The position numbers were made by a program, and so were the translations under genes. Source: Podarcis liolepis (taxonomy: Eukaryota). Taken from it: DNA of 64,000 bases. Below the pieces are notes generated by a model. It made no database searches, had not been told where the DNA came from, and saw only the letters and a list, made by a program, of their open reading frames with translations. Shown here piece after piece: positions 2,895 to 34,670 of this stretch (position 1 is its first letter; each line of letters begins with the position of its first letter). The stretch lies in assembly GCA_965112155.1 (NCBI GenBank), contig OZ218098.1. One strand, given 5' to 3'.

Positions 2895-3068
2895 ACTATG
2901 CTGTGACTGCACACTCCAAGCTGGTCATCATCACTGCTGGAGCCCGCCAGCAAGAAGGCGAGTCTCGCCTTAACTTGGTTCAGCGCAACGTGAACATCTT
3001 CAAATTCATCATTCCCAGCATTGTCAAGTACAGCCCTGACTGCAAGCTGCTTGTTGTTTCAAATCCAG
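2895..3068 (+). CDS. LDHA: LDHA coding exon ([32 protein letters not shown]...VVSNP)
   Basis: 174 bp, AG/GT, substrate loop [11 protein letters not shown]. Confidence 0.97.
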
Positions 3069-4540
3069 GTTGGTTGTGTCCTATTCTTAACTGCTTATGG
3101 ACCATAATTCACCCTCCAGTCCTTTGAAAGGAGAAATTGCTTGCTTCCAAGAAGGAAATCGGGGAATCCTGAAATCATTCCAAGTTTTCCCTTGGCCATG
3201 AAAAGGAAAATATCTATTCCACCAGGACATCATGGTTTAACACTTAAGTTTCAATTCTGAAGTGGGACCTGCAACTAAATATCGTCCCATGGAGTGCTCC
3301 TGCTCAGGGTTCTATTCAGCCATGCCCTTTCCCAGAACACTCCATTCTCTTACCTCTTTTCATGTCCCCACTGTATCTACTCAGCAGCCAATCATCATTC
3401 CATGCCCACTGATGATGCTGTCTTTCATTGGGCTGTTACAGGTCACATCCTTCCTTTTCTAAAGATTTCATGGACTTCTGGGTTCCATAAACTTGCTCAT
3501 AACTCCTTTTTGAGTGTGGGTGGTGCTGTTTTGGCTATATAAGGATCTTCATTTGAAGAATGATTTTGCTATCTAGTATCTACGATGATTGGAACTATGG
3601 TGGTGACAATCGTGGCTAGGGTCTGTTAAGAGATCACATCATTCCACTGTCTCATGGGAAATACAGCAGTACTTCCATGTTTGACTGTTAGGGTGCAGTC
3701 TACAGGAAACGCCTAACTTTTCCCCATGTAAAACGAGGTGCTGTGCCTAGTACCTAGCTGATAGCTCATTTACACTATTACTCTCTGTGACAACACACTT
3801 ACACACTCTTCTCTGATCTATTTACACAGTGGCTGCATTCAGATGCCCTGGTAAATCATGGTGGATGGACCATAGCTCAGTGTTGAAGTGTGTGTTCCTA
3901 ACATAGGAAAGTCGAAGGTTCAAACCCTGACATCTCCAGATAGAACCAAGAAAGATTCCTTGGCAATGCCAAGCTGGATGGACCATGGCCCCAACTCTGT
4001 AAGGCAGCTCTTGAATTCCTATGAGCCCTGGGGTCATGTTCCCACACCCAGCCCTTGTGGCTATGAGGTTGGAAGCTTTCTTTTTGATGGGTTCAGAAGA
4101 ACAAATAAACTGTAGTTAATAAGGAAGTGAAAGCTTCAAAACTCATCCTCAGGGCTGGAGAAGATGGGAACAGGTGCAAGCCCAAGGCTCTCCTAGTCTT
4201 GCTTTGACCCCAGTAAGCCATAGCTTACCATGATGTCTGGATGCAGAAGTTCAGGAAGTTAAACTAGAGACTTTGGCAAAAGGAAAGAGCTTTGGTTGCT
4301 CTGCTGGGTAAGAGCTTGGGGAGGTGTTGGGATACTTGCAAGATGCTATGTCCTGCTTCAGTCATGCCTGCATGCCCTGGTCCCAAGTGAGATATCGCTC
4401 CCTGCGTCCTCTGTAAGACACAGATAATTCTGGATCGGTGCTGTTAACTCACAGGGGACATCTACTAGGAAAGTCTCCTAGTCTTGCTTTGACCCCAGTA
4501 AGCCATAGCTTACCATGATGTCTGGATGCAGAAGTAAATA

Positions 4541-4576
4541 ATTCATTCATTCATTCATTCATTCATTCATTCATTC
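4541..4576. repeat. (ATTC)9 microsatellite within a local duplication
   Basis: Read directly from the sequence. Confidence 0.95.
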
Positions 4577-4816
4577 ACAGGGGACATCTACTAGGAAAGT
4601 CAGAACCATAGTACAGAACCATCACTCTTGCCTGAGCACCTCATATTAAAATGAGAGGATTGTAAAGAAGCTCCTCAATATTCCCTCTGCCCTTTAACTG
4701 CTACCTGGAGCCAGGATGGTTTTGGCATTTCATCATTAAGGTAGCCTTGTGTAGAACAGATGAAATTAAACAGCCTCTCTTTGTGGAGAAGGATTGCAGA
4801 TTCCCAGTGCTCTTGA

Positions 4817-5149
<333 letters not shown>

Positions 5150-6767: not shown

Positions 6768-7777
6768 GTAATCTTTATCTTGTCTCTGTGTGAGAGAGGA
6801 AATGGGGTTCCACTGCGCTTCCAGAAATTGCCTGTGTCTCATTTTCAAGGATGCCACAGCCTACATTGCTTCAACGAGGTCCCCTGATCCTTAACGGAGC
6901 ATTTTTGCCCCATGACATGCACTTAACTTTGGACCAAACCCCTTCGTATTCCCACAATATAATCTCCAATTGTCTAGTTTTTAAGAAATATTGATTTAGA
7001 GTGCTGTTTACAGTGTTCAGATTACTGGAGAGTGCTTTTCCAGTGTTGGAAACCACTGTTCAGCAGTTAATTTCCCTTTGTTGATAGATACTATATAGCA
7101 ATCCCTATATTCTGCACTGTGGAATTTGAATGTTTTGAAAGCGAAATAAAGTAAATTCTGCATACATTTCACATTCCTGAAGGACTGATCCATTTACAAA
7201 CTGCCCTGGTTTACGTAACATGCTGGGTAATAGTTAATGTTAATGTTTAACTACCATTACATGTGAATTAGCAGCTTGTTAGTGTAGGCGTCCAGAAATC
7301 CAGATTGCTTCACCCTCATTCTTGCTTGCGCTACATGCAACAACCACAAGCTGTGGCTTGTTGTGCCATATAATCTGAACCCTGATTTTAATCTTTTTAA
7401 ACAAACCATTGTCTAACTTTGCTCAGACAACCTGAGAAGCCAAGGCTGGTAGTTTCTCTTCTCGCCCCCACCCCTAAATGGTGTGGCTAGGAAAGGAGAA
7501 GGGACACTGCAAGGACTTTGAGCATGCTGCTCATTTGTATTTAATGTTTAAATATTAACTATGGCTTGACAAAATATGCAAGCAAAGCTACTCCATGCAG
7601 GCACCAGCATCTCTACAGGGAAAGGCTAGTAGCTTGCTTGTAAAAATAATAAATTAATAGATCTAATGCCTGCAACAGATGCCGTTTGGAAATAGAGGAT
7701 AAGTAGCCTCAGATGGACTTCATCTGAAGTACAGATGGACAGCTATGCTGTTGCTTAATAGACATGATTCTTTTTAA

Positions 7778-8008
<231 letters not shown>

Positions 8009-8188
8009 TAGTCAAGCTAACAGAGGCAGTAGCTGCCAAAGCAAGTAAATGAGTTTGCTTTAAATAAGGAACAGATCTCCCTGCAAGGATGGCGCTTTCT
8101 CCCCCTTCCCACTAATGGGGAAAGCATTTATTACATGCAAATCAACACATTATTTAACTGGCTTCTTTCTTTTTACTGTTCTTTCTAG

Positions 8189-8353
8189 GGCATGCATGGA
8201 ATTAAAGATGACGTCTTCCTTAGTGTTCCTTGTGTCCTGGGCTACTCAGGAATTACCGATGTGGTGAAAATGACCCTGAAGAGCGAAGAGGAAGACAAGT
8301 TGAGGAAGAGTGCAGATACGCTCTGGGGGATCCAGAAGGAACTTCAGTTTTAA
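8189..8353 (+). CDS. LDHA: LDHA last coding exon ([18 protein letters not shown]...[10 protein letters not shown])
   Basis: 165 bp to TAA; KELQF C-terminus typical of LDH-A; synteny with TSG101. Confidence 0.96.
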
Positions 8354-8964
8354 GCCTGATGTCCTATCACTTCACCGCTTAACTAGTGTTTAATGGGTCT
8401 TAGTGGATTGTCTTGTTGCACTTTTCAGATAGATCAACTCCCTTTACGATGTGTGTCAACTACCAACACAATGCAGAGCTAAATTTGCAAATGAAATGCC
8501 TATTTTATCCAGTAGGAAACTTGCAGCTCCTGTTTACCACAACCCCGGTCTGTGGCCAGAACTGGAAGAACCTAGTCTCTCTTGTTAAGTGGTGTAAAAG
8601 TAGATCCAGCATGCTCTGAAACAACACTGCCAAATGGAAGCTTCCTGCCTTTCCGCAGCTAAACTTTAGTCACTCAGAAGAGAAGAGCTCAATTGGTCTT
8701 CCAAAAGCTGTAGAAAACCAAAGAATATTTTGTGATCAAAAAGGATTGGCAGATTCACTGACCAATATTCTCTGCTTAACACATGACTTAAATTTCCAGT
8801 ATTGAGCAGTTCTAAATGTCCTTTTTCCTTAGTCTTTGTGCATACTTTTCAAGAGAACTATGTGTACTCTAGAGGAGTGTCTTAAATGTTATGTAAAAAA
8901 ACCTCTGTATGCAACAATTACAACTGATGCAATTGTCTAACTGTAGTACCAGCCCAAGCAACAA

Positions 8965-10150: not shown

Positions 10151-10286
10151 CAGTGTTTCTGAAACTTGGGGCCCCAGCTGTTGTTGGACTACAACTCCCA
10201 TAATCCCTGACAACTGGTACTGCTAGCTAGGGTTGATGGGAATTGTAGTCCAACAACAGCTGAAGACCAAAGCTTCAGAAACAGTT
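10151..10286. mobile_element. short palindromic MITE (GGACTACAACTCCCA family)
   Basis: Internal inverted repeat; related copies near 29300-29525, 47165-47260 and 63200-63330; ends approximate. Confidence 0.65.
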
Positions 10287-10994: not shown

Positions 10995-11500
10995 CTAAAA
11001 TTTAAAAAATTATAGGTTTGTTTTAAGATGCCTTGATACCTATTTAATCAACACCCTAAATTTCCTTTTAAAGTCCATGGAAGGGAGTCCCAGGTATCAC
11101 AGGAAAGAGGTTTCCCTCCTGCCCTCAAACATCTATTGCATGTGAAGAAATTACCCCCACGCTGCTCTGAGGGCAATAATGGCAAAAAAGGTGCCTGCCT
11201 GGGGAAACTTGGGATCCACTGAATCCCAAACTCTCCTGTTCCCATAACATACCTCTGGAACGGGGTGGGGAGGGAGTACATGGTCCTGAAGCTGGTGTAC
11301 TCAGTTTCCCGTCCTTTGGGCACTAGACGGGAAAACGGGGTGGTAGGCAGAGTGGGCAAAGGACAGGGTAGTTGCAAAAGGAAAAAGCCAGGATGGGTGC
11401 TACAACACCACCTTCTGCCCTGCCAGCATAAGGCCGGCAGGACTTTGGGTGTGGCAGTTTCTTTGCCTCAGTAGGATTGCTCCGTAACACTTTAAGAGTA

Positions 11501-11718
11501 CAGTGGTACCTCGGGTTAAGTACTTAATTCGTTCCGGAGGTCCGTTCTTAGCCTGAAACTGTTCTTAACTTGAGGTACCACTTTAGCTAATGGGGCCTCC
11601 TGCTGCCGCTGGAGCACGATTTCTGTTCTCATCCTGAAGCAAAGTTCTTAACCTGAAGCACTATTTCTGGGTTAGCGGAGTCTGTAACCTGAAGCGTATG
11701 TAACCCGAGGTACCACTG
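11501..11718. mobile_element. Tc1/mariner-pogo type MITE, family A
   Basis: TIR CAGTGGTACCTCGGGTTA, TA TSD on both sides; inverted copy at 61497-61721. Confidence 0.9.
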
Positions 11719-12112
11719 TATTTATGTACGAGAACAGCATTTAACTGCTTATTTGGATGTTCTCAAAATTTCACCATTCCTGTGCTACTGACCTTGTAAA
11801 TAACCATAGACACAGGACAAATAATTGTAATGTCTCTGCAGTTTTAAGACCACTATCCTCACTTGCAGATAATGAATCAGTGGTGAAGAATAGATGGCTA
11901 AAAAGAAAAGGGCTAAATTTTTCATTTCCTATAACACCTACCACACAATGGATGCCAAGAGCTACAGGCAACAGAATCTACTGCAAGGAAGGAAATGTTC
12001 CAGCTGCTTTGAGCAACCAAAAAGGCTTCGTTGTTGTTTGAAAAGACATGGGAAGTCATGAGCCCAATGCTTTTAATTGCTTAAAAGGAAAAAGGCCTTT
12101 TCGTTTGCTTAC

Positions 12113-12315: not shown

Positions 12316-15300
12316 CTGTACAATAAGATTCAGTCACAGAATCAACCCCTTCTACTTCTAAGGAGATTTGTAGGTCATGACAATCTGTTTGCAAAGGTAT
12401 TTGAGGCTAAAAAAACTAGAGTATGTTAAAACAGATTAATTTTCAGACATAACATTCCAAAAGGTGTACCCATGAACTTATAAGTTGCTTAATAATCTAT
12501 TGTACTTTCCCAACTTAAGGAGGTTCTGCCCATCTTCTCACAGAGTGCAACTGTGAACTTGAACCAGCAAATATTTTAAAAGCAACCATAGAGCTTTCAA
12601 GTGTTAGCTAACTAACACATTAGCTAATTATTACAATGAAAAAACATCGTCCTTGAACACAGGTTTAGCTCTCAGCCACTCAAACTTTACTTTGGAACAC
12701 CCCCAAATTCAAAATGTTTTAATGAAAACACAGAATGCTTCTGTCAGATTACTAGCTCTGGTTATTGTTTGAGGAGCACTGAGTTGAGCTACAAACAATG
12801 AAACACTAGTTTATTTTTTATACAAATATTTCTTTTGCTTTTGCATCAACCATCATATAAAATATCTACAGTCATTTTTTATCACCAAGTTCACATGAAA
12901 CCTCAAATGTTTGCCATGCACAAGATGGTCTTTCCTTATTAAAACCTTTCCTTCCAAACACTCACATCCACGAATTCACATTGCACATTCAAATCTACAA
13001 GTTTTTCACTTGTCTCCTCACAGACAACACTGTCTGAAGAGTTTCCTTACATTGAGGACTTGAAATTTTATAAAAATGAATGCCCTGTCTTAATCACTAC
13101 CGTTATTAATCTACAAATATATTTTAAGAAAGTATTCAATAAACTGTGTAGGTTTCCAAACATCAAAATTATATCAAACCTAGCAAGAATTAGCAACAGC
13201 ACTCTAGTATAAAAATTGTATTTTACCTTAACACACCAACTCAAAGAGCCCCACAGGTTTCATATGCAGCTTGAATTTGCCGCCATCCATGTGTTCTCTT
13301 AACATTAAAACTCTTCTTCTTACAGTCTCTTTCACAATTATCAGTCCATTCTTTTTGCTTTTGAGGTGTTCCCACTGCCCCAAATAGCACTTAGTATGTA
13401 GAAAGTGTGGTATGGGTCCATCCCAGCAGTTTCCTGACCAGCCCACCTGCAGCAATTTTGTCCACTCAGCAAAAGTAAGCAAAGTACGGAAAACGTCTGT
13501 TCATGCTGTCGTTTCTGAATCCGCTCTGTCTTGCTGCTGCTTCACTCACTCTGGTGGGATCTTCACGCCAAAACAACTTTATGGAATCACAGTCTCTGGA
13601 ACTTCCGACTCCAGACTTGGGATTTCACTTTATGAGGATACATTGTTGATTCATTTTCAATATTTCATTCTTCCTGCTGTCATTTTCTTTTCGTTAAATG
13701 GATATAAGCTTCTTATCTTCAGAATAAAATTAATGACGGATGAGTATCACCATTTCATTTCTTCAATGTGTTTAAAGTCCAATTACCAATTTCAGTGAAC
13801 ACCAGATGATTTCTATTTGCTCTCATTTCCATTCTTGTCTTGTGTTCATGTCCAACAAAGTTCAAAGTCTGATGCTAATGTCCGTTATGTTGATCATTGC
13901 TCCCTAAAGTCTTTCTGCTCTTCTCTTGAGTATGTATAGGCGTGGCATCATATGTAAGGAACACTGAAAACTGGTGTCAGATAAAGAAACTCTTCTGCAT
14001 AACAAATGTTGAGCAATTTAAACCAAAAATTATTTGAACACAAAACATTATTACAGCTCAGGGTTCTGCACATTGCTGATTCTAAACATTTGCGTATCAT
14101 CTGAGTTCCCCCCATGAAGCTTTTATCCCAAAAACAAAACAAAAAAACCTCTCCAAACATTGGCATTATTAATTTTCTATTATATTAAAAGTATAATAAT
14201 AATAATACAGATTTTAATAAGACATTCTTATGAGACAAGGGGCCCCAAAACATCCTGGAAAATCTCCAAATACCAACACCTCCAAAAATGCCTCCCACTT
14301 TTACATAATTACTGGTATGTAATTTTTAACAGTTTCAACTTGAATTATATGCATATTTCTGAAGAATGAACAGGCATACAGACAGTTACGCTGATACATG
14401 ATGCTAGATGTATACAATTTGTAAGGCGAGCTCAAATAAAGGCATCAAAACTCATGTTAACAAATTCCCGCAGGTTCCAAAATGACAGCTAAGAAATAAG
14501 CAAATGCCAGAGCCGACATCCTTAGAATTGTTGTTGCGTTGCTTTTAAAACAAGCCATATTCTCATTAAATATAAAAGTTGTTGTTAAAACATTTATTCA
14601 AATACTTGTGCAGCAAGAAAGCGAGTATAATTCAGGCTAAAACAGAGATGGAAGCCAGGATATTGTTTGATATTCTTTCATCTTTAGAGGGGCACCATGG
14701 AATGTGTTGTGTCCTCAAGTGCTGTCCCAACTACTGAAAAGACCCAAGGCAAAACAGTATGTAGTAGACGTTCTATAATATAATCTCAGGTGATTTGAGT
14801 GAACTGCAAACATTCAGACGTTTTAACTAGCCAAACACAGGAGTGTAACTTAAGTGATCTAAGCAAATATGTTTATGTACATCAAAAGATGTAACCCTCT
14901 AATCCCTCTCAACTGATTTAAGAATTCATCAAAGTTTGCCTTTAAGAGATTAAGACCAGACTAGCTGCTATGTGGTTGGACAAATGAAAACAAGTATTCT
15001 GGCAGACTTAAGGTAGGTTTGAAGTGATGCCAGCATGTGATTATCTGCATTGCCAAATTCCAAGGGCTACTTCTGGTTGAATTTGAAGTACCATGTCAAA
15101 TCACTAAAGAGGTTCTCTTAAGTGTCTTCCCCATTCACCCTGTGTTGCATATTCCTGTACCTGAAGACAGCTGCACGCAAGAGTTTACTGCAGAAATTGG
15201 TCCTAAATTGCAACATGTTGCATCGTTTTCTTCTGAATGATCTAGATAACAGTTTCAACAAAACAAATGAAGGTTCTGTTCTGAAACTATCCATTTCTGT

Positions 15301-18300
15301 GTTTTCCATACCAAGTTTTATCTTCTTCTACTACTGTCTAGACCTGTCCTGTTTAAAACGAATTATTCAGAGTAAGAAAATCATGAAGGCAGTTTCAAAA
15401 AGTAACTTAACCTTATTTTGCTAATCCCCTGCTTCAGAAACTGTATTAAAATTGGTCAACAGCAAAATAAGAAAAAAAAACCTCAAAAAAGAAAAACCTG
15501 AACAAAACGAACAAACCAATTGGCTCAACTCAGTAAGCTGTGCTAAAGAGGAAGGTAAACACTGTTCAAAGCAACTATGGGTGATATCAAATGTTACTCA
15601 TTCAGAAGTAGACCCATTTAGATCAATGGACTTAAGCCCACTTATTTCAGTCGGTCTACTCAATGCTAATTTAGGATTATCAGCCTATATGGTCATCCAG
15701 AAAATGATATTGAAAAAACCAGCAAAACAAAATCCTATTCAAGTGCTAGACCCACATTTCCATCTCTCTCTGCCCCAGGTTTATTTCCACCATAAGCATA
15801 TATCATATAAATATATCTTAAAACCAGTTACAACTTCTTGGTCAAAGCTGTTTATTTATGAAGCTTTTGTCTAGAGCTTAAATAAAATCAGAGAAATAAG
15901 TCTGCATGTACAAATATATGGTTTTAGATGTACAGAGAACAAGACAAGCTACCACCATATACCAATTCATACCAGGAGCACTTGATTTGAAGAGCACCTT
16001 CAAGAACATGAACCCTTAACATTTTCAATCACTTCCATAATTAGCCACCCTTAGAGAAGAGTTCCTGGCATGCAGCCATACGTCCAAGGGAAAACTCAGA
16101 CATTTAACCTTTGCTATACAGAGTCTAGTTTCAGAACTGACCTTATGGTACTGACCTTACAGTACTGCAGACTAGCAGTTGACTCAGACAGAAAAGAAAC
16201 AGCCAAATATCAACTTGGCACTGGAAGAAACTGATGTTTAATTTAATTTAATAATGATGACTATATATTACCACCAGCAGGACAATGTGAAATGTAGCAT
16301 AAACAAAGTAATAATGGTGTATTCCTCAATTATTAACTAGAAAAGAATTTTAATTATCTTTTCAGTTGACTTTTCAGGAGGGGTATGATGTCAAACAAAA
16401 TATTAACACTGAAAGATGGAAGTGAAAGATTAAACAGACTAAATTGCTTTAGCTGTATCAGAACTGCCAGAGTAGACAGTCCATTTTAAAGGATTAATAC
16501 AGTGTGGAAGTCCATCAGCTGGGGGCCCAATAACCAGTTTGAATGACTTCCAGAAAATACTGCCTTACTAGGCCTCTGTTTAGTTGAACTTCAGGTAAGA
16601 CATTTCTTCAGATAAGGTGGTAACCTCTACCCCCACCCCACAAATTAAGTACCTTAAGATTAACACCGCCATAAACCCTTAATATGCAACTTATATTCTT
16701 GAGCAAAAAAAACCCCATTGTCTGAGAATAAAAATTGAAAGGAAAGAACATTGATATCAGCCTGGGGCCAATCTTCACTGAACCTTTTACCAGGCAATGC
16801 CAGGAATTTAACCTGACACATCTTCAGCAGACAAAATATCTACTCATTGAGCTATGGTCTCTTCTTTCTCAGACCCTGCTTCTAGTGGCACAACATCCAA
16901 GGTTGGAGAGCCCTCCATAATGGCCCCCATGAGCTGCAAGGAATTTCCAGCAGAAGGAAATTCCACCTCTTGCCCAGTGGAAGTGCTTTTCACTTGTGCA
17001 TTGGGATCCTGCTCCATGATAACATAAGTGAACTCTGAACACCTGGATGTTAATATATTTACGGAAAGAAATCTTAGAAGAATGAACCCTGATATCCATC
17101 TCTACTAGTCTTTTTAGGGGATTCCATTCTCATTATATAACTGCTACTTACCCCCCAAAGCTTAATTAAGTCTGCAAATCAAAGAGACCCTGTGGAAGAT
17201 GTTGCTCTGCTCACTGCTATATTCCAGTTCCCCAAGAAACTGGAGTATTCCAAAAAGGACAAAGATTTCTGAAAGGCCACCTTGTTCGTACAGATGTGCG
17301 AGCAAGGGAGACGCTGTGAGCTAACATGAAAATAGAAAAGCAAACTTAATATTTGTTGCTCATTCATAAACATGCAACATACTTGAAATACTATATACCA
17401 ACCATAAATAAACCATATATAGTACTTTAACAGCCCCAACAAAATGAATACCATGGATCCAAAAAGCAACACTGTTTTGCCTGAAAGCTTTCCCTTGCAT
17501 TCTCCCAAAAAACCACCCTTGAGAGTAGAGGGAACCTCAAGAACAGTATGAGATGGGTGGTGAGGAAATGCAGTTGAAGGGGGAGATCGGTAAGCTGCCT
17601 TGTGCAAGTAGAAGTCCTTTCAACTTATGTAAGACCAAGTCTGGATCCAAAGCTTTACTTTTATCTCATGCAGATAATGGTAGTAACAGCTCTTGACAGT
17701 TTTGTTTTAATAAAATTATGAGTAGTAGTAGCTTACTTAAACACACTATTTTTATACAACCTAAATATAGCTGAGGAAAGTATCACCATTTCTGGGATGT
17801 TTTGACTGTGGGCTGATCAAGAAGTGTTTCAACAAGTACAATCAGCAACCCAAAGAACATCTTTCCTCAATCGTCTTTATAAAAAAAATTCACATCATTC
17901 AGTACTAAGTGTTCACTAACAAAGAATGTAAGGACTAAGAAATAAATACTAGTATTTTATTGTTAGAACACAAATCTCCAAGTTATACAAATTAGATGGA
18001 TCAAACAGCATTGCCCAACATCAAAAAGGTAGAAAAGATAGGCCCAGATCCATATTGGAACTTAACGTCCCTACTACAAGCAAGTATTCAAAATGAAGGC
18101 CATAGTCAGTTGTAAGCGCCTGCCATGTCCTTAAGGGAACGAGCTGGACTGCACTATAAACATGTAGAATTCTGCTCCTGTCCCTCCCAAAGGCTATATA
18201 GTTCTCCCCCAATCTAGTGGGAAATTTCCAGAGTGGTATGCAAAGAGAGGTTATGTAAAAAAATATAAATGTAATCCAAGCATTCATCTTAAACTGCAGT

Positions 18301-19894
18301 AAAGTTCAATTCTAGTCTGCTACATTCTATTCCTGTTGCCCTTGCATTCCAGAATCACATTTGTGCTGAATTTTAGCTTCCAACATCAACCTACAAGATT
18401 GATATCATATTTGGAAGTACTGACCATTTAAAACCACAATACCAACGAATCCAGAATTCGTCTGGATATTGACCTGATTTCAGAGAAGCTGGGAAGGTGA
18501 ATAAGCCACTGAAGTTAAGCTCTCTCTTGTTTGTGAAAGGCACATTACAGCATAAAAGCAATTTACATAAAATGTGCTACCGAAACACTGAAGGATATTG
18601 TCTCATGTGGCTTCATTCACAACCAACTCTCCTTAAGAATAATCAAGTTCACAGCAGGGTGTTTTTTTTAAATAAAAAAAGCATGTTTCCCTGTAATTTG
18701 TTTCCTAGTAATTACTAACAGTGATTGTGAAAAATGGTCATTCTATTAGATTATATTTTAAAAGCAAATTCGGATGCAGGCGATCTGCCTTTTTTCCAGG
18801 AAAGGTGACACAGTAATGCCAAAGCAAAACATGGCAAAACTGTCATACAGTCACTTGTCAGACAGTTCAACAAGCTTCAAGGTAACCAGAATATGTACCT
18901 TCACACAGTTTTAACAAGTGCCATAATAGCTCTGGGCAGTCATGATCTTTTGCAATGAATGTCTTGCAGAATAACATTTAAAACTTTCAGTGTCTAAAAC
19001 TTATATAGGATTTTGGATGTGAAATTCCTGGTTGAATAAGCCATGAAGGAGCATCTGGTGTTTATGCTGGTTTTAGTACTTTGAGCCTAGGCTCTTTAAC
19101 TCAGTTTCCCATTATGTCTGAAATTGGGAGCACTGGTTTAAAGTTGATTTACTAACCAGCATCTGAAATCTGATTAGCAAACTTGTATTAAACCTCAATT
19201 CCCCATTTCAGAGGAAAGTGTGACTTAAAAGCAGCTTGGGCTGAACCTGGCACACATGGGGAGGCAGGAATAAGCTTGATGCTTATTCTTGCTTAATGAA
19301 CTATGGTTTATTAAGAATTTTACCTCTGAGCCTGCCATATGTTAACACTCATGAAGCATAAGTGATTAACGTATAACTAGAGTAACATGTGAGTCCATGT
19401 ATAATGAAGCCCTAATGCTTCAGTTTGTTTTCCTGCTCTAGTCAGACTCACCTTTTCCAAAGTTACATATTTTTATGATGTTTTTTCTGATTACCCTTTT
19501 TAAGCTATTACTGCACCCATATTTTAGGTAGCTATCACTCATGCTATTCACTGAGCATTTTTTGGATGGGAATATCAATCAGGGAAACTAAACTGCTTGG
19601 CAGTGTCTCTAAGCACACTGTAGAAGCAAACTGAATTCAGTGGGGTGGGGAAGTAAACAGAATTAAAAAAAAACCAGTTAAATATATCGGCAAATGTCTT
19701 ACTGCAAGTGGTTGCAGAACAATGCCACTAGCAATTACATTACTAAATTAATACCCACCACCATATTAACAGTGCAATTCCGCTGCCTGAAAATTCAAAT
19801 TACCACCGTTCACAACCTTCTAATAATCTCTGTCTGTAGAGACCTTCCATACTTGCTTAAACTGAAATCTATTATTCCTTCTCCAAAGAAAAAG

Positions 19895-20475
19895 TTAGAT
19901 CAAAGTCTCCAAAACACTTAATAAATCCAGGTTGAAGACATCTGTGCCACTTTCAGACAAGAGAACACCATCTAGATGGAACAATCCTGGAGGCTCTGGG
20001 ACAAGTGAATCGTGTTTGATTATAATCCCTCCAATACGTTCCATAAAACTGCTGATTTCCCGATTTACTCTCTTCCTGCTTTTCTCCATAAATTCATGGG
20101 ACATATCTTGGCTCCATGCTTTGCGGGGTACAATATTAGACCAGACAAGGATGCTGTTCTTGAATGTTATCTTAATATGTATTATATCTTTCTTCATTTG
20201 TCTTATGAGATCATAATCTGCGTATGTCCCAAGGTCATTTCCTCCTAGATGGACCACCAATATATCAGGATCTGTTAGACGCCGCCGCGTGTGCAATAGG
20301 CTGGGTATCAACTGATCCCATGTCATGCCACTCTTTCCTAGCCAATGTAGTTTGGCATCCTCCAGTCGAATGCCCAACTGTGGGCCAAAGCTTCTTTCAA
20401 GTGCTCTTTTTTCTGCCCAGAAAACGTAAGAATGACCACATATCCATACCTGTTTCTGCTTTCTTCTGCCATCTG
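19895..20475 (-). CDS. putative alternative terminal exon of TSG101 encoding an SGNH/GDSL hydrolase-like domain (retroelement-derived type, catalytic His replaced)
   Basis: Intact frame of about 193 codons; SGNH blocks VWICGHSY, GKSG, HLGGND, DGVLLS; pyrimidine tract plus TAG/CAG acceptor in phase 1 matching the TSG101 exon 7 donor; in-frame TAA just upstream of the acceptor. Confidence 0.75.
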
Positions 20476-22534
20476 CTATTAAGAGAACAAACATACATTA
20501 ATGCTTCATAAATTTTGTGGCCCAAGCACCTCCTGAAAACTTTATTCAGTGTTGTCTGAATTATTCCATGTAAAAATCAAAACATGAGGCACCTCTATCT
20601 TAAATTACATGGCATAATAATCCATAAAGTCAACTTTATTTGAAGATTGGTGTGTAAAGTTTACAGGTAAAAATGCCTGTATGCAAGTTATAAGATCAAT
20701 GGAAAGGAATGCATGCTCATGTACCCTTTTGATCAATCTTACAAGAGCAACTGAAAATATCTTTTCTAAATAAAGTTGCTAACAATCCATTTAGATCTTG
20801 ATAAAGTATATAGGTTTGATAGATGTGCTCTATTCAGAATGAAGTTCTTCCAGATTTTTCCCCAAAATTAACAAAAGGTCAGGAGCAGAAGTCCATACCT
20901 TTCAAGCAGACCAAGCAGAAGAGAAAGCTTCGACTCTTAAGAAAGCCCAGGGAGTAGAGTTATACTTCTCTATTAAATCTTATGTAGAAATTTATGTAAC
21001 CATTTCCATGCTTTGCCTGACAGGATTAATTTTTGTTGCCATATTACATCTCCATTTCTAAAAATTCATTTTCTAAACAAAATGCTAGAAAGCTTGCACT
21101 AGGGATAGATTTTCTATTACTGCCCTGAAAGAAGAGTAATTTGATCTCTTCTAAACAATGTAGACCCCCAGTATTAAACTACAGAAAATTATCAGTTTTA
21201 CATTTTCCCTGCAATTTTCAACTTGGTTTTGTTTATGAAGTCTTTTCCTGACATGCTATCCAGTCAATTTTATAATTGTAAAAATGGTTTTATTGTTTTT
21301 AGAGTTTGCATCTTTTGTATTTGATCTTACTGTACATAGCTTCAATAGCATATGGCTCTGAAGCAGTCCATAGACCTGTAAAATAACGATAATAGTAATA
21401 GCTCAACAAAAGTGATGATAATTTTTGGAGTTCAAATATATTCTATGTGACACTGGACAAGAAAACAGTGGATGATGATGTGGCCAGGGATCTTGCAGTC
21501 TTTGTGCTAAATAATAATGTGCTTTCTAAATTATACTCTTTTGAGGGTTTTCAAGTTTTTGCTTATCACTAGAGGCAACAATATTTTCAGATTCTTATGA
21601 CTTCTCTCCTGAACAGGTTTGGTAGTTCTGGGCTAAGTAGTAACACAGGTGAGCAAGCATTTCAGCACCCAAGAATTATACTGAATGTGAAACAGAAGAA
21701 AGCTGTTGATTGGCACCTTTAGCTTACAGATCAACAAACTTCACAAAATGAAAATCTGGTGATGGTAGCTGGGCTACGTCATGAACGGCACTTCTACACT
21801 TGCATCACACACACAAAAGTGGAAAAAAATTGCAGTTTGGGAGTGTACTGGAAAACACGATGGAGTCAAGGATAGCTTGGTTCGCTTCCAGTTAAGCACG
21901 GAACTCAACTGTATTTTCAGTGCTACTCGACAGCAATCAAGGCTTCTTCACATCATCCTTAGGTACTGTTCTCCATTCTTGGCTGACATAGCAAAAGGCT
22001 TGTAAATAGGCTGTAGTACTGCATCTTGGACTGCAGTTACTCCACACTGGCCTCTTCATTCTTGTGCCCAAATGATGCTGCTGTTCAAGTTCCTGCTACA
22101 TTCAGTGGTGTGATCAAATGAAACCCACCCCTTTCTCATCATTGAAAAGTTCATAACTACAAGATCATTCCCCCAGTCAATAAGAACATAATAAATATGT
22201 AGGCTTAAAATAAAAAAAAAGCCTTCGGGCTTTAATTTATCTTGGACCTGCAAACATAATATTTTCAAACACATGTGAACTTCATTACATAAAACAGTTC
22301 AATAAAACTGAAGTTTGTTGAACAGTGAAAACAGTTAATGATTGTTCCATAAATCAAACAATGGAGAAAAAAATGAACATCTAGCATGGTTAAAGTGTAA
22401 TGTAACTGATGTTTTTGCCACGAAACACTTAATGCCCATCTCAGAAATAGGTGTATTTGGATTTGCTTTATGCTGTATATTTAGAATGAGCAATCTCATT
22501 ACATTTGGAAAAAGACACTTTCAAAGCTACTCAC

Positions 22535-22632
22535 CCACAGTAGTTACAGGAGGCTGAGAAGGGTAGTGTTGTGTGCTAGTTGTTGGTGGAAATGATCCGC
22601 TAGGGGGAGGGTAAGGATAGCTTGGGTAACCA
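22535..22632 (-). CDS. TSG101: TSG101 exon 7 (GYPSYPYPPPSGSFPPTTSTQHYPSQPPVTTV), proline-rich
   Basis: 98 bp, AAG acceptor after pyrimidine tract, GTGAGT donor in phase 1. Confidence 0.92.
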
Positions 22633-24751
22633 CTTTAAAGGGGAGGGGGAGAAAGACACAGTGTTATGCATTCTTTAGTTAATATTTCCATTCATAAGCA
22701 TTTTTTTTATACATTTAAACAATTTATAATAGACAAACAGAATTTAAAAAAGAGCCACTGATGCAGATATAAATGGTCAGAGTAATATTCAAGACCATGA
22801 GAAATTTGTTGTCATCCATAGGTTTCAGAGGTATCAATGTTTTAATCAATGTTATTCAAATATGTATAAATAAATTTCAAGTTCCCTGATCAAAGTTTCT
22901 TCACATTTGTGGATTAAAGCTGAAGATAGGTAGAGGCACTCAGTCTAATTATTCATGGTTCATTCTATGTTAGCAGTTAACAGGTTTGTACTTTGTTGCA
23001 TTATTTTCATTTGAAAAGGTCTATGTTGCCTTGGTGGTTTCATTTACAGAGGGGAGATTGAGCAGGCTTCTGCAACTGCCAGAGCATGTACACATTTTAG
23101 AGTTTCTGCATGCTACGTTACTTTCCTCAAAAGTTAGTGCCCTCTATTTCCAGTCAGTTGGTGCCATGCACTCCATTTTCAGAATAAGTTATAAAATCCA
23201 TATAGTGATGGCAGAACTAATAAGCCATCAATAATAGGAAACTAGAGACAATAATACCACAGGATATGAAAAAGGGAGATACAATACAGTACATGTGTGG
23301 GATTTCTACACTCAGAACTGTGTCTATTGTGAACAAGCCTTACTGTTTAATTCATTGTACTAACACTAGCCAACAACTAAAGGGAGAAAATGAGCCGATG
23401 TGTAGAAATAAAGCAGTCCTCAGCCCTCTTCTGTCTCCATACATTAAAAGAACATGTGCAAAAGGTAGCAGTGCATTTTATCAAGGTTGGTGTTAGATTT
23501 TAGTAGACTCTCAGATTGGGCCTCTCTCAGTTCCCCTGCCCAACAATGTGTCTTCCCTTGGGCACTCTGCCCACCAATTCTGCTGCCACCAGTCATTTCT
23601 CACCCCCTCTGGTTGTGCTTATCCAGCAGATGGCAGCGGTGTTTTTGATGGAAAACAGGCTACTACTCAGCTCTGATCTTCAGCAGCAGATGGCTGCCAT
23701 CTCAGAGACCCCAAATGCAATGCCTGTTTGTGAGCACTGCATTTTGGGGGCCCTGAGATGGTGGCCACCCACCACGGACTGGGTTTGAGTGGTAGCTTGG
23801 TTCCCATATGAAAATGGCACCTGCTGGTGGAGGGTAGTGATCGGTGCATTGGATAGAGACCCCAACGGTGGTGGAAATGCCAGGCAGGGTGTCAATGCGG
23901 GTGATAGCAAGACAGGCATCAGCTCCAATGGGGCCCTGCCAAAACACGTGGGCTGCAGCAGCTGCTCCAGCACGTTGGGTTCTAATCCTGGGTCTGTTTT
24001 GGAGTTGCTCCACCACCACTGCCCACACTGTCTATTGCTGGCTCCACCCTCAGACTTATACGTATTGGGCAGAAAGTCTGAAGGGGAAACTTGCACACAT
24101 TCAGCAGAAGGTACACAGGCTCCTCCATTTAAGTAGGAGTTCTGTGGATGTGTGGATGCAAATTTTGTGGAGGAGCCTGTGTGCATTAAGCTGAACTTAC
24201 ACATTCTCCCAACAGATCTTCTGCCCAATGCACAAAGGTCTGGGGGATGAGCTAGAGGGAACAGAGACATCAGAGACAGAAAAAAAATGCATAGCTGTGC
24301 ACCCCCCTACATGTGTTCTTTGAACATGGACATGGGAAGCCTAGGTTTTTTATATATAAAAGGGCTCTCATCAGGAGAGGATGCAGCCAAATAATGTTAA
24401 GAATGCAGGAAGCAAGCTGAAAAATTTTATAAAAAGGCAAGAACGTGAGTCATTTTAGAAGTATAGGTTTACAATGACACCAATTTTGCTCACTATACAC
24501 TTAATCATTGCTTTACTCAAATGAAGGGGGCCTTAAATGCAACCAGGGTTTTTGATGACTGTATTTAAATAACAACATATAAAAGACCCTGACTCAACAC
24601 CCAGACAAAACTGAACTCAAGATGAATGGAATACAAATCTAATGCTTTTAAAGTCCATCACTCTCAATTTCAGAAATGGGCACAACATCACATTGTCCAA
24701 TATTGACAGTGTAGTCTATTGGATCGGCAGATTCAGCAAACTATAGCTTAC

Positions 24752-24818
24752 CTTGGGTTAGGTGGTGGTCCAGGAGGGAAATGAGGCATTCCACTTGGCA
24801 TTCCTGGCATATAGGAAG
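24752..24818 (-). CDS. TSG101: TSG101 exon 6 (SYMPGMPSGMPHFPPGPPPNP)
   Basis: 67 bp, AG/GT, phase consistent; completes GPPxxxY motif across the junction. Confidence 0.93.
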
Positions 24819-27250
24819 CTGTGCACAACAACAATTTCAAACATTTTAACAATTTAGGATAGTGTTGTTCAATTATATAATATTATCTTTACAAATAAGT
24901 AGTTAAAAATTAATTGGGTTGCCTCTACTCAAGGTAGATCCACCAAATGAATGGAAATAATGAACTTAGGTCTATTTCTTTCAATGGGTTGAGTAGAACT
25001 TAGTTGAATACATTGCACTAGGTTAGATCCAGACTTCTTGTGAGCAGAAACCTTCTGGGAGGAAAGGAAGATGCAATGGTTACCTATTTCTTCCTGCTAT
25101 TTCTGACCCCTGAAAGTTGTTCTGGAGGACAGGGGGAGGGGGGTATTCTGTGGAAGACCATGGAAGTTGGTGCTGAGACAAGAGGCAATAATCACTTCCC
25201 CAAGTCTCCACTGAACCTCAGTCCCTTTTTGGAACAGAAGCAGCTGTTCTATTAATAGAATGACAACTATTGATGCAGCCCATTTGTAATTTCTACAGTT
25301 GTAAAAGTAATTTTTTAATAGCCCACATGAAGCAAATGCAAAAGGAAAGGAATGAAAAAAAGAAGCCTTCTTGACCCCTGCCCCACCTTCAGAATAAGCA
25401 AACAGCAGCCCAGGAAACCATTCCTGTTCCTAGTCTTCCCTGTTGTGCTTGCACTTATTATGCATTTCAGTTACTTTACTCTTGCTGCATAAGCCAATTC
25501 AGAGTGTTCATTCATCCCATTTTTTCCTTACACATATTCAAATCCATAGGTGGAGTTCAACATCACATTATTTCAATTTTTCCCTTGGTGCAAGTGTTTT
25601 TGCTTGCTTGACAGAACAATCTCCTCTCTTCTCCTCCTGCAGTCTGGGGTTTTTTCCTCCCAAAGCAGATAGTGTGGGGAGACCCAGCTGTGCTACTGTG
25701 AGCCCTTCCACTGGCTCCTGCTAGTATAATTGTTTAGTACTTTAATTGAATCCAGTCCTATATAACCAGGGAGTCCTTACAAACAAGCCATTATTAAAAT
25801 GGAGCAATTAATCTAATAATAAAGATTAAAATGTTCATACTAAGAGCTGGATCTATAGAGTTGGTTCCAGAATTGTGTGGGAAAAGGTCCACTTTCCCCC
25901 TCCTCCCCACTGCAGCTCACTACGCCCCTTCCAAAAATCACCTGAAATTTGAGGAAGTTTCTGGAGTGGTCCAAGATGGGACACGAGGGAGAAATCAATG
26001 AATTAGATGTGATGTGTGCCTTGCATTCATTAAGTATAAGTAACACATCCCACACTCCAATTTAAGACAATTGAGACTGCACTTTGGGGCTTTCTCCATT
26101 ATGTTATATCTCTCACTGCACCAACTCTACATGCAGTGCAATGAAGAGTTCTGGAGAACCTGAAAACTTGCTCACCATTAATATTACATTTCCAAGGGTC
26201 CTAATGAAGCTATTTCCCAACTGTGGTTTTGCACACCCACACCCCCACTGAAGACAAGGACAGCTACCTATGATTTTTAAAGTGATGGTGTCAAAGCATT
26301 AGTGTTACTTTCAAGCTGGCAATATATAGCTTTACTAGTTCTGAAGTCAAACTCCTGGCTATTCTATATTTGGCTGACACCTACTGGCAGAGATGATATT
26401 CTCTGGTGGTAAAAAGAAAGAAAGCTTTTTGCAATGCTAAAATGGCAGAAGAGAAAGCAAATTTAACTTTCCTTGAGTGCTCAGCATTGGTACATCTAAC
26501 AATGACAGGTTTTTGTTCTATAAAATTAATTTTCCTACAATAATCCCTGTTTTCAAACTGGTATAAGTATACATTTCAAATAACTACCCTACACATCTTA
26601 TAAAATAGCGCAGTAAATTCTTGCAAAATAATTAGCAGTTGTAGGAACATCTTTTTCTCAGAAGTTGAGAGCAATGGAACATAAAAGTGTCATTATTAGA
26701 TACCCAAAAATTAGATACCAAAGTGAGTTTTTAATTTGATTTGCAATTAAAAGAAAATTAGTATAAAGGATGCCAATATAACTCTGCTAGCATTATAAAA
26801 TAAATAAGTTTCAAAAACAATGACATATGAAGATAAAGGTACTGATAATGGCAAAATATTAGCATAAATAATGTTTGAAAACAGATGAAGGATCAAATGA
26901 ATTGTAGCAACGTTGTTGAGTTTGTAGTGTGGGTGCTAAAAAACTAAACATCTTTCATTGAAATTTATTTATAATCAAAACAGTTATTAGACAGCATGCT
27001 CAAAATATCTAGCCTAATTTTCTGCATTTAAATAAGCCAAACTCTGAGCTGCTGGTAGCTGAAAAAGATTATAAAGAATGAATATTGGCTATACAACTTG
27101 TGCTCTGGACTGGGCAATTGGCAGCAGTGATACTTTATATTTTAACCAACAACATAATTACATATTTAAAAACTGATACTACAATAACTAGATCCTTTCA
27201 ACAATACACTGTGCCATTATTCTACTTGTTTTCATTGCAATTTGCAAGTA

Positions 27251-27666
27251 CAGTGGTACCTCGCAAGACGAATGCCTCGCAAGACAAAAAACTCACTAGA
27301 CGAAAGGTTTTTCCGTTTTCGATTTGCCTCGCAAGACGAATTTCCCTATGGGCTTGCTTCGCAAGACGAAAACGTCTCGCGACTTTTTTTTCTTTGTCTA
27401 AAAACAAAGACATGTTTTGTTTATAAAGTTAATTTATTTTCCCTTAAATTTTTGAACTGCTCTTTACAGTATGTGTGACTTTAAAGAGCAGTTAATAAAC
27501 TGTTGTTGTACCAAATTTGGCTTTGTTTGGACTTTTTTTTGACCATAGGAACGCATTAATTGATTTTCAATGCATTCCTATGGGATTTCGTGATTCGCAA
27601 GACGAAAAATTCGCTAGACGACAAAAATTGCGGAACGAATTAATTTCGTCTTGCGGGGCACCACTG
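27251..27666 (+). mobile_element. Tc1/mariner-pogo type MITE, family B (GCAAGACGAA subterminal repeats)
   Basis: TIR CAGTGGT(A/G)CC(T/C)CGCAAGACGAA, TA TSD; orientation given relative to the other copies. Confidence 0.9.
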
Positions 27667-27689
27667 TATATGGGGTACAAGGTACTTAC

Positions 27690-27816
27690 AGTTTGGTGGT
27701 CCTGTTGCCTGGTAAGGTGGGTAGGCTGCTGAAATGGTAGGCCGAGAGAAGACTGGAGGTTCTTCTCCAAACACCACAATCATCACTTGAATCAAGCCAA
27801 TCAAATCTGATTGTGG
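27690..27816 (-). CDS. TSG101: TSG101 exon 5 (PQSDLIGLIQVMIVVFGEEPPVFSRPTISAAYPPYQATGPPN)
   Basis: 127 bp, AG/GT. Confidence 0.96.
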
Positions 27817-28306: not shown

Positions 28307-28470
28307 ATGTTTCCATTCATGTAGATATGGAAGGTATATCTTGCCATTTGCATCCACGTGCTTCCCAGTTTTAATTGTCATTGAACTAGTCGGCTTAACA
28401 AAACAGATGGGTGGATTGTATGGATATGTATCCAACAGCCACAGACATATTGGGATATTGTATGTGTTAC
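28307..28470 (-). CDS. TSG101: TSG101 exon 4 ([54 protein letters not shown]), UEV
   Basis: 164 bp, AG/GT. Confidence 0.97.
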
Positions 28471-28898: not shown

Positions 28899-28964
28899 CT
28901 TTGTAATTTACAGGAATGGTTCCTGTGAGGCTCATCAGTTCTCTTGATGAACCATCATTAAAAA
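28899..28964 (-). CDS. TSG101: TSG101 exon 3 (FNDGSSRELMSLTGTIPVNYK)
   Basis: 66 bp, AG/GT. Confidence 0.96.
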
Positions 28965-29658: not shown

Positions 29659-29743
29659 CATATCCATCCATTACAGGCTTGAGGTCTTTGTACTGGGTAA
29701 TAACACTGACAGTTTCCTGAACAGTCAAGTCTCTGTACTTGTA
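29659..29743 (-). CDS. TSG101: TSG101 exon 2 (YKYRDLTVQETVSVITQYKDLKPVMDGY)
   Basis: 85 bp, AG/GT. Confidence 0.96.
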
Positions 29744-29831
29744 CTAGGGGGAAATAGATTTTTGAAAATCTTAAAAGCTCCACGAAAGACAACTTCCACT
29801 GAAAACATTTAGACTTCCTTCAACACAACTA

Positions 29832-30176
29832 CAGTGGTGCCTCGCAAGACGAAAACAATCCGTTCTGTGATTCTCTTCGTCTAGCGGTTTTTTCGTCTTG
29901 CAAAGCAAGCCCATTGAAGGAAGCAAGCCCATTGAAGGATTAGCAGATTAGCGCTATTAGTGGCTTATCTGCTGATCGGATCAGCTGATAAGCAGCTTAG
30001 GGGCTTAGAAAAAGGGGGGGGTGAGGGGAAAAAACCAGCAGGAACTCGCAAGACATTGTCGTCTTGCGAAGCAAGCCCATAGGAAATTCGTTTTGCGAAG
30101 CACCTCCAAAACGGAAAACTCTTTCGTCTAGCGAGTTTTCCGTCTTGCGAGGCATTCGTCTTGCGGGGCACCACTG
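29832..30176 (-). mobile_element. Tc1/mariner-pogo type MITE, family B, inverted relative to the 27251 copy
   Basis: Same TIRs and GCAAGACGAA repeats, TA TSD. Confidence 0.9.
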
Positions 30177-31399
30177 TATAGTGACTAGAGAACAAGATCT
30201 GCAGTCTTCCACAGCAGGTAAGATACTATAACTACTTTTTTATATAGAAACACTTTGCTGAATTACTGCCAGAGATTATAGAGTAAACTTGACCTGCCAG
30301 AATCAAGTATAGGTGGTATGTCATGATGCAAAGTGAATCAAACTCAATTCTACAATTAGGATGCTCAAGTGAAATGAGACTGTCCACAATCCAACATGTT
30401 TTTTGTCTTGTGGTAAGCTGACGCAGTTCTACTAACAAAATGAATACACTTATGAATTAATGTAGACCCTGAACAGATTTTTAAAACTGCTGATGGCAAT
30501 GAAATAAGTGGAGGATTGTGTCTCTATGACAGAGGCACATATTTAGTCCAACATCTCTGCAAAAACCATCTTTCTCTACCTCAGCCATCCACACACAGTG
30601 CCAACTGATCCAGAACACTCTCACGTCCCACACGTATCTCTGTAGCCGCCCACTCTCCACTGGACCGCAAGAAAACTGATTCCTTCAAGCTCCTCTTTCA
30701 AGTCCACTATCAACTCTGCTCACCTACTTGAGCAATCCCAGTTCACAACTCCTTGTTCTTAAGGTCTCCTTGTATGGGAAATGCAACCAGAAGACAAAAA
30801 TGTATCAAGGAGTTAGTGATCTGTTCCTTCTCCCTCCCTTGCTCTTGTTAAGTTTTTTGATGGTGTGAGACCGGTCTTTAATGGCCTGAGAAAGTTGGGA
30901 GGAGGTGAAGCCCGACACACAGCAGCCTTCATGTGCTGGGAACCTTATTTGACATTGGACATTGTTTTGAAAAGGTGAAGCACTGGGTGGGGGTGGCTAA
31001 TGGATGATCTGCACATAGCCAGTCTGGCAAGCCACACCTGCTATCTATAGTTTGGGCAGAGTTTCTTTGAAGCTCCTGATCGGCTGCAGGTCTGTGCAAA
31101 GTGAGGCTACCTGGGGGAGTCGCTTTGCCACTTCTTAAGGGCTTCTAAATGGCAGGTTGAAGTGCTTGCTTGGTATATATACATTGCTTGCTGTTTGAGA
31201 ATAAAATCTGTAATCTTCCCATTCACTTGTGTTTTTTGTATTGCTTCTGAATCTCATTTTAAAAGAACCACCTTGCCTTTGGTTGTAAGACCAACAGCAG
31301 TCAACTTCTGTGGCCTCATTGCTCAAAAACCAGTACCAGAGTTTGCACTGCCGCCACCTGCCTTTATGCATTATAATACAGATTTAAAATAAAAAATTC

Positions 31400-33999: not shown

Positions 34000-34670
34000 A
34001 TCCCTTTTTGGACTCGACAGACCAGGGACTATTTCGGCCTGGTCTTTCCCTTTGCGGACTCTCAGGAGGATCATTCTCGCGACCCACGAAATTAGAGACC
34101 CTTCCCATTCCTTCTGCCAGAAAGCCGGCCTCGTTTATTCGTGTCTGGCTAGGATATTTTTGTGGGTGCCCCCCCAGGCAGCAGGAAGAAGGGAAAGATA
34201 ATGACTCTGGAGGAAGTTTCGCTCGGGAAGCGGCGTGAGGTGAGGGGAGAGGGGCGGCATGGAGGCCCCCCCGGGGGGGCGAGCGCGGAGGAAGCCCCGA
34301 GGCTGTTCCCCCGGCAGAAGCCCGCTGGGAGGGGCTCCCCGGCCGGCCTCGCCGTTACCTTGCCAAGCATCTTCTTCAGCTGGCTCTCCGACACGGCCAT
34401 GGCGGCGGCGGCGGCAGCGGGCCCTGCCGGCCGCCGGTGGTCGTCGTTCCGCGCCCCTCCTGCCGCTCCTCCGACTCCCCGCGCGAACGAGGAAACCTGC
34501 CCCGGCCTCCCTTCCGGTGCTTCCTTTCCACCCGTTTCCGCTCGGCGGCGCGGCGCGACGTCACTTCCGGCGGCCAGGTGCCGCATGCGCGTGAGCGTAC
34601 ACTGCTGTCACTGACGAGCCCATAGAGATAGCAACGTGGAGAGGGTCACGCAGGCGCCGCCTAGTTTTTC
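34000..34670 (-). promoter_or_regulatory. TSG101 CpG-island promoter with ETS-CRE composite (CCGGAAGTGACG, 34559-34570) and NRF1-like site (34581-34590)
   Basis: High GC/CpG density; motifs read directly upstream of the ATG. Confidence 0.8.
34359..34400 (-). CDS. TSG101: TSG101 exon 1 CDS (MAVSESQLKKMLGK)
   Basis: Perfect Kozak GCCGCCATGG, GTAA donor, inside CpG island; the 10 exons sum to 1182 nt = 393 aa + stop. Confidence 0.97.

Follow-up and report, generated by a model that had tools for sequence, protein, structure and literature searches.

Here we analyse a reading frame for an SGNH-fold domain that lies inside intron 7 of TSG101, the gene for an essential and intensely studied subunit of the endosomal sorting complex ESCRT-I, in the lizard Podarcis liolepis. 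The sequence examined is a 64,000-nucleotide stretch of contig OZ218098.1 (assembly GCA_965112155.1), referred to throughout as the window. TSG101 occupies the minus strand, where the coding part of exon 1 (34359..34400, ATG at 34400) is followed by exons 2, 3 and 4, which encode the UEV domain (29659..29743, 28899..28964 and 28307..28470), exon 5, which carries the end of the UEV and the start of the GPPxxxY motif (27690..27816), exon 6 (24752..24818) and exon 7, which encodes the proline-rich region (22535..22632). All borders of exons 1-7 are GT/AG. Exon 7 closes at 22535 in phase 1, on a GTGAGT donor common to both isoforms. In the canonical isoform this donor opens an intron of ~10.2 kb (12316..22534, minus strand), which contains the alternative exon and leads to exons 8-10, whose frames are open.

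The SGNH exon and its junctions

The coding part of the alternative last exon comprises 193 codons and a TAA stop (19895..20475, minus strand), with a second start at 20472 provided by a NAGNAG acceptor. It lies within an open frame of 200 codons (20497-19895, minus strand) with a TAA stop at either end, and a frame of at least 200 codons arose in none of 300 shuffles of the surrounding intron (mean 97, maximum 181). Its translation contains the SGNH-like blocks VWICGHSY, WLGKSG, VHLGGND and DGVLLS. The upstream edge (20473..20500, minus strand) consists of a TAA (20500-20498), an in-frame ATG (20494-20492), a pyrimidine tract and the tandem acceptor itself, TAG (20478-20476) followed by CAG (20475-20473). 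The intron letters directly before the acceptor (20478-20497) translate as MFVLLI, identically in four orthologous open reading frames (ORFs) and nearly so in a crocodilian-type one, and likely mark a conserved splice-control element. Past the stop, by ~580 nt, lies a minus-strand AATAAA (19307..19312), a candidate poly(A) signal; a further AATAAA occurs at 17961.

Joining exons 1-7 to position 20475 or 20472 yields stop-free proteins of 409 or 408 amino acids, with the junctions VTTVADGRRK and VTTVDGRRK, respectively. Both carry an intact UEV (Pfam E 3e-50) with Met95 and the GPPxxxY motif, and both lack the coiled coil, the internal PTAP and the steadiness box of canonical TSG101, whose C-terminal part is needed for ESCRT-I assembly. 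A preliminary description of this DNA, made from its letters, had already proposed the open frame on the TSG101 strand, the phase-1 tandem acceptor with its 409/408-residue products and the candidate AATAAA, and our coordinates and joined frames agree with it on each; it had overlooked the ATG at 20494 and the Leu that stands in DGVLLS in place of a catalytic His.

Evidence for splicing comes from annotated gene models, taken from independent RefSeq and Ensembl annotation. The two window fusions are near-identical to RefSeq TSG101 isoforms of Podarcis raffonei (406/409 residues for X1, 405/408 for X2), and junction forms with and without the Ala are both annotated in 14 species, from lizards to echidna. 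RefSeq isoform pairs of this kind normally derive from RNA-seq introns. Judged from this annotation, exon 7 is very probably spliced to the SGNH exon in this animal as well, and the isoform is very probably real.

Elsewhere in the window, exons that we take to encode lactate dehydrogenase (2753-5149, plus strand) and UEVLD-like exons lying upstream of TSG101 (45478-48975, minus strand) presumably reproduce the LDHA-TSG101-UEVLD order of human. Three short elements with inverted termini starting TACAGTGG (11499-11720, 27249-27668 and 29830-30178) presumably resemble miniature inverted-repeat elements of the Tc1/mariner type, and more inverted repeats were found at 10154-10283 and 24038-24255.

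Orthologues, age and donor element

Annotated gene models show the same fusion across squamates, turtles and crocodilians and, among mammals, in echidna, marsupials, manatees and a tenrec; with the cluster lists, the marsupials come to six species, and two manatees and the tenrec Tenrec ecaudatus are added. In a search for longer homologues, 23 of 39 matches combined the TSG101 N-terminal half with the domain at 69-98% identity, the other 16 matching at 36-44%, and the domain was carried by all 59 further cluster members. At the same intron position, identity to the window is still 70% in manatee and 75% in echidna. In a 71-row tree, computed without P0004, P0009, P0024, P0040 and L004, the 23 fusion rows form one branch (support 100/100, stem length 0.55) that broadly tracks host phylogeny, with lacertid, turtle-crocodilian and marsupial-echidna groupings. 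Within the 1.57-Gb lizard genome, a 2-kb piece of DNA with the exon matches only itself in a search that skips common words, and the best other copy at the protein level is 36% identical among the 150 scored of 930 candidate places. Together, these comparisons support an old, orthologous exon, not a young insertion, and the exon appears to have been captured from a transposon in the ancestor of reptiles and mammals.

Conservation is concentrated where a ligand pocket is expected. Across 34 full-length orthologues, 83 of the 193 SGNH positions are invariant, most of them in the pocket blocks. Total tree length is 2.37 for the SGNH domain, close to that of the proline-rich region (2.08) and above that of the UEV (0.68); inside the domain it falls to 1.15 and 1.21 in the pocket blocks and rises to 4.72 in the middle. 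This pattern argues strongly for constraint at the protein level.

No fusion from a bird, boreoeutherian, tuatara or amphibian is named among the 39, 30 and 7 homologue matches or in the eight cluster lists, one of which shows 15 of its 18 members, with clusters P0005-7, P0011-13 and P0015 lying outside them; absence from these groups, which depends on annotation, is therefore weakly indicated. A UEV/proline-rich-region motif was likewise absent from all 141 newly returned representatives. One sequence, P0148, is a decayed copy of the exon, 54% identical to the window over its first 124 residues, matching thereafter in a shifted frame, and nearest by score to the manatee protein; this suggests that decay has claimed the exon in one lineage or more, probably in a mammal. 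Human DNA retains 28 pre-amniote Ngaro fossils (PMC9004415; statements attributed here to papers cited by PMC number refer to the available portions of those papers), and the human TSG101 intron could be among them. Four models from Alligator sinensis (P0022, P0204-P0206) show UEVLD reading into TSG101 and ending on the SGNH exon (808 residues with two UEV domains, a lactate dehydrogenase domain and SGNH), and may be assembly or annotation artefacts.

We compared the exon with SGNH paralogues in the same genome. A tyrosine recombinase (YR) lies within 1.5 kb of the SGNH sequence at 24 of 29 paralogue loci, and three of these elements (L036, L037 and L040) have the order ORF1, reverse transcriptase (RT), YR, SGNH. 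Ngaro elements are defined by split direct repeats and an SGNH ORF "with no proven function" after the recombinase (PMC9210276), and L037 has such repeats (A1 170-395, B1 7555-7854, A2 7916-8141, B2 8321-8620), each pair being 100% identical. Between the TSG101 exon and the L037 SGNH, identity is 34% (E 5e-35). The TSG101 locus does not itself qualify as a Ngaro element, being a single DNA match without gag, RT/ribonuclease H, YR or repeats; as the preliminary description had noted for gag, RT and recombinase, no element remains were detectable in the intron part 12400-22530 (best E 0.58). That description had left the donor open between Ngaro/DIRS-group and L2/CR1 elements. The Ngaro half of the proposal stands; for the other, the ZfL2-1 esterase (PDB 4C1B), the one esterase of a long interspersed nuclear element (LINE) that was compared, is 16% identical, and phmmer returned no match to it at E<=1; with that esterase as the comparison, an L2/CR1 donor was rejected. 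The donor family is, on sequence grounds, a Ngaro-type YR retrotransposon, and the YR-linked paralogues and the orthologues bear out the earlier idea of an exapted transposon domain attached to the UEV and GPPxxxY motif in place of the coiled coil and steadiness box. The nearest non-fusion proteins come from amphibians and fish (42-44% identity), a placement that is weakly supported.

Several other SGNH sequences came to light in these searches. L037:170-8620 (G000:C5), whose ORFs are open and whose split repeats are 100% identical, seems to be a complete Ngaro element, and many near-identical SGNH copies occur elsewhere in the lizard genome, which suggests recent activity in this lizard. At another place (G000:C9, ~2.0-2.1 Mb; L003, L004, L022, L026, L029 and L038), at least seven SGNH ORFs lie within 90 kb, several without an adjoining recombinase, with Asp for the catalytic His and some with one internal TGA, which may be a tandem array or a further domestication. 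L002 / L032:4312-4923 (G000:C2), one open SGNH ORF that has no recombinase, sits on a long branch, has three of four catalytic positions changed and a best match of 44%, and is a candidate second domesticated pseudo-hydrolase. Finally, a set of proteins (P0048-P0056, P0058, P0060 and P0072) comprises large ones with up to seven tandem SGNH domains, mostly without the catalytic His, and others in which cold-shock/CSDE1-like domains are joined to the same SGNH domain, one also with PRY-SPRY; these multi-domain and CSDE1-like fusions are apparently independent host captures in which catalysis was often lost.

Fold, active site and possible roles

An AlphaFold2 model of the domain built from 34 rows (mean predicted local distance difference test score, pLDDT, 92.4) matches the SGNH/GDSL fold, with 174 residues aligned both to 4rw0 (Z 20.0, root-mean-square deviation, rmsd, 2.5) and to PAF-AH (Z 19.4, rmsd 2.9); the Pfam match to Lipase_GDSL_2 (E 1.5e-4) lies under its cutoff. 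In a PDB sequence search the domain found only a chance carbonic anhydrase match (E 0.11), a metagenome scan gave 82 pattern matches and 0 relatives, the ESM Atlas returned generic eukaryotic SGNH clusters only (0.97-0.98), and homodimer prediction, with the alignment not used, scored 0.02, a value that weighs neither for nor against a dimer.

The active site is preserved in part. Ser23 (25/26 fusion rows, the lone exception having a mis-modelled N-terminus), Gly57 (26/26) and Asn87 (26/26) are kept, as they are in all 59 further members. Position 179, the site of the block V catalytic His, carries Leu in every fusion row (26/26) and in all 58 further members that cover it, as against His in 44/50 and 119/169 relatives; the exon reads DGVLLS where SGNH enzymes and transposon relatives read DGVHLS. 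An active canonical triad was accordingly rejected for the whole fusion clade, and the domain is not a canonical hydrolase. The block V acid, Asp176, has become Asn in 7/26 fusion rows and 14/58 further members, a drift that would be expected if the acid were no longer needed. Thus the "domesticated SGNH hydrolase" of the preliminary description is right as to fold and not as to a canonical enzyme, and the substitutions argue that the domain has probably lost catalysis and become a pseudo-esterase.

We propose the following course of events. A Ngaro-type retrotransposon would have entered TSG101 intron 7 ahead of the split between reptiles and mammals. All that remained of it would be its fourth ORF, the SGNH hydrolase, serving as an alternative last exon behind a phase-1 tandem acceptor. 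Joining exon 7 to this exon by splicing, with polyadenylation within the intron, would produce a 408/409-residue protein that retains ubiquitin and P(T/S)AP binding by the UEV together with the GPPxxxY-containing proline-rich region, and in which an SGNH fold stands where canonical TSG101 has its coiled coil, its internal PTAP and its steadiness box. With its Ser nucleophile and oxyanion Gly and Asn kept and its general-base His lost, the pocket may bind an acyl or ester ligand, such as a lipid, without turning it over. The isoform would then act outside ESCRT-I as an adaptor for ubiquitinated cargo and PSAP/PTAP partners, be brought to a membrane or lipid ligand through its SGNH pocket, and escape steadiness-box-dependent turnover, so that ESCRT-I might be diverted or damped in tissues that use the exon. 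Such an ESCRT-I-independent amniote form of TSG101 would be some 320 million years old. Precedents exist for the component properties: ubiquitin and PTAP/PSAP partners are ligands of the UEV, and TSG101 level is controlled through TAL by the steadiness box (PMC7073217); liposomes and anionic lipids are still bound by the ZfL2-1 esterase when its active site is mutated (PMC3905857). Of the readings considered here we favour the whole chain, an ESCRT-I-independent adaptor with a disabled, lipid-binding esterase pocket, though tentatively and as a quite possible course; the prediction that follows, in which an ESCRT-I-independent TSG101 carries a lipid-sensing or lipid-sequestering pseudo-esterase and so switches endosomal sorting, abscission or budding in a lipid-gated manner, is a more speculative possibility.

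Several observations weigh against parts of this account. The RefSeq X-isoforms behind the fusion are automated models, and two GenBank models, P0213 (Lerista) and P0240 (Chelonia), leave the SGNH match early and continue for ~200 residues, possibly through predicted splicing back into canonical exons. Split repeats were found in only one of the three elements, none being present in L036 or L040 within the stretch examined, and the sister group of the fusion clade is poorly supported (87/49), so that the donor is placed to family and not to lineage. With an orthologue-only alignment (20 rows), pLDDT drops to 70.7 and residues 167-200 are mostly below 50; the block V geometry of the 34-row model therefore leans on transposon relatives. 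Mean net charge is +3.9 in the fusion domain (n=25; the RRK at the exon start uncounted) against +9.4 in transposon domains (n=50), and because ZfL2-1 liposome binding is charge-driven, this lower charge counts against simple membrane binding. Lastly, catalysis could be rescued by a new, invariant His174 that sits five residues ahead of the lost His.

This last point opens the first of the alternatives, in which the domain is still an enzyme (a slow esterase, an acyltransferase or a single-turnover acyl acceptor), rewired for example to a His174 or His22 base and supplied by the UEV with ubiquitinated or PTAP-bearing substrates. The retained Ser23, Gly57 and Asn87 fit such an enzyme, as do the superior conservation of the pocket blocks and the fact that His174 is invariant in the fusion clade and Arg in 42/50 relatives. 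However, the canonical base is Leu in all rows, the acid drifts between Asp and Asn, and the region of His174 is modelled with low confidence from orthologues alone; we consider a rewired enzyme unlikely.

N-terminal TSG101 fragments act as dominant negatives, and the isoform, with its Met95-bearing UEV intact and its ESCRT-I-joining part absent, might serve in defence, either as a decoy for viruses with PTAP late domains or as a trap for Ngaro or LINE particles in which a transposon-like domain is paired with an ESCRT-uncoupled UEV. The fast-evolving middle helices (tree length 4.72), the many intact Ngaro copies in the genome and the finding that ESCRT promotes LINE retrotransposition (PMC5478143) are in keeping with this. 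Yet any truncation would serve as a decoy, which leaves the conservation of the pocket unexplained, and although mammals are described as lacking DIRS-group elements (PMC7786948), marsupials, echidna and afrotherians carry the exon intact. The antiviral decoy put forward in the preliminary description is unsupported, and a role in defence seems rather unlikely.

A disabled SGNH fold might also bind RNA or a protein partner, giving a germ-line or ribonucleoprotein adaptor form comparable to the OSK domain of Oskar. Oskar's SGNH-like domain is a non-enzyme that binds RNA (PMC10792757), and invariant basic residues occur at the start of the TSG101 exon and in its RR.L.DP motif. But Oskar has lost the Ser, whereas Ser, Gly and Asn all persist in the TSG101 domain, whose net charge is modest; and the ZfL2-1 esterase does not bind oligo-A RNA (PMC3905857). 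We regard this role as improbable.

A separate gene within the intron, or a product of intron retention, that begins at ATG 20494, with the fusion an annotation artefact or minor by-product, has little to recommend it. The ATG would give a 199-residue protein, its MFVLLI start recurs in the four orthologous ORFs, and a turtle model (P0042) is a separate 230-residue LOC gene; against this, the crocodilian-type ORF (P0041) reads LCVLLI and has no Met, the conserved letters coincide with the pyrimidine tract and acceptor, and the phase and Ala-plus/minus junction pairs are maintained in 14 species. Finally, a young or neutral transposon fragment that is open by chance, for which one could cite the 930 SGNH-like candidate places, many with open frames, can be dismissed, being refuted by the 69-98% identical orthologues (manatee and echidna at the same intron position included), the host-like tree and the single DNA match, with none of the many near-identical copies by which the preliminary description would have recognized a young fragment (best paralogue 36% among the places scored).

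Relation to known transposon-derived exons and TSG101 variants

If the proposal of an ESCRT-I-independent TSG101 adaptor is true, the exon would be the first host domestication of a Ngaro hydrolase found in our literature searches, and, in reptiles, marsupials, monotremes and afrotherians, the isoform would be a natural regulator of the pathway behind receptor sorting, abscission and the release of enveloped viruses. Its apparent loss in birds and in the human/mouse lineage would have made the isoform invisible to the ESCRT field, and the bird and boreoeutherian losses, if confirmed, would provide a comparative test of what the exon is for. Retention of the pocket by the host, together with loss of the catalytic His, suggests that what makes the Ngaro hydrolase ORF useful is binding, and the exon thereby offers a handle on an ORF whose function is unproven (PMC9210276).

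No description of a TSG101-SGNH isoform was found in literature searches, subscription papers lying outside them, or in the available parts of PMC9004415, PMC12129022, PMC4495291 and PMC7786948, and two TSG101 reviews, in the portions available, mention aberrant cancer splice forms only (PMC7073217, PMC8393842). The "hidden" and undescribed exon of the preliminary description is therefore undescribed in the papers covered, but hardly hidden, as it already stands in RefSeq as TSG101 isoforms X1/X2.

The closest architectural precedents are TMPO LAP2alpha and ZNF451-L2a, whose alternative exons derive from a DIRS-order (YR) retrotransposon and are under purifying selection (PMC4495291). As in those genes, one large transposon exon replaces host domains and creates a chimeric isoform while the original isoform is kept (PMC4495291). 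Unlike the TSG101 exon, theirs come from a DIRS1-like gag/ORF1 and are confined to mammals or eutherians (PMC4495291); the TSG101 exon stems from a Ngaro SGNH ORF, occurs in both reptiles and mammals and belongs to an ESCRT-I gene. It also resembles Lyosin (MYL4-L1 ORF1p) and the RFX5, NUP42 and USP4 fusions, which are Paleozoic transposon coding exons present in reptile RefSeq models, with repeated losses and partial loss of the transposon function (PMC12129022). Lyosin differs in having a LINE ORF1p donor and a first exon in MYL4 (PMC12129022). TSG101 is absent from the available text and the ten supplements of that study, a screen that used LINE ORF1p queries only (PMC12129022). In common with LAP2alpha and Lyosin, the TSG101 case presents a single in-phase exon homologous to a transposon ORF, a canonical isoform that is kept, an orthologous position and vertical descent.

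As for the domain itself, the Ngaro Hydro-SGNH ORF (PMC9210276) has the same blocks as the TSG101 exon and, in its lizard copy, the 34% identity given above. Ngaro copies keep DGVH and follow a recombinase, whereas the TSG101 copy has lost the His along with gag, RT, YR and repeats. The ZfL2-1 ORF1p esterase is likewise an SGNH fold from a retroelement, and its membrane binding is independent of the active site (PMC3905857). ZfL2-1 differs in its LINE donor, active triad, 16% identity and Foldseek rank of 47.

Products of TSG101 that lack the ESCRT-I-joining C-terminus also have precedents, among them TSG-5', which we take to be an N-terminal fragment that competes for partners. The cancer splice variant TSGdelta154-1054 is a TSG101 product of the same kind, lacking that C-terminus and competing for partners (PMC8393842). 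TSG-5' and TSGdelta154-1054 are engineered or aberrant truncations, whereas the fusion occurs naturally, is conserved and gains a folded domain. What was known already, then, is the presence of the proteins in RefSeq as automated TSG101 isoforms and an architecture of the LAP2alpha/Lyosin kind; what is new is the identity of the donor ORF as a Ngaro hydrolase, an age that spans amniotes, a loss of the catalytic His that has become fixed, and a core gene of ESCRT-I as the host.

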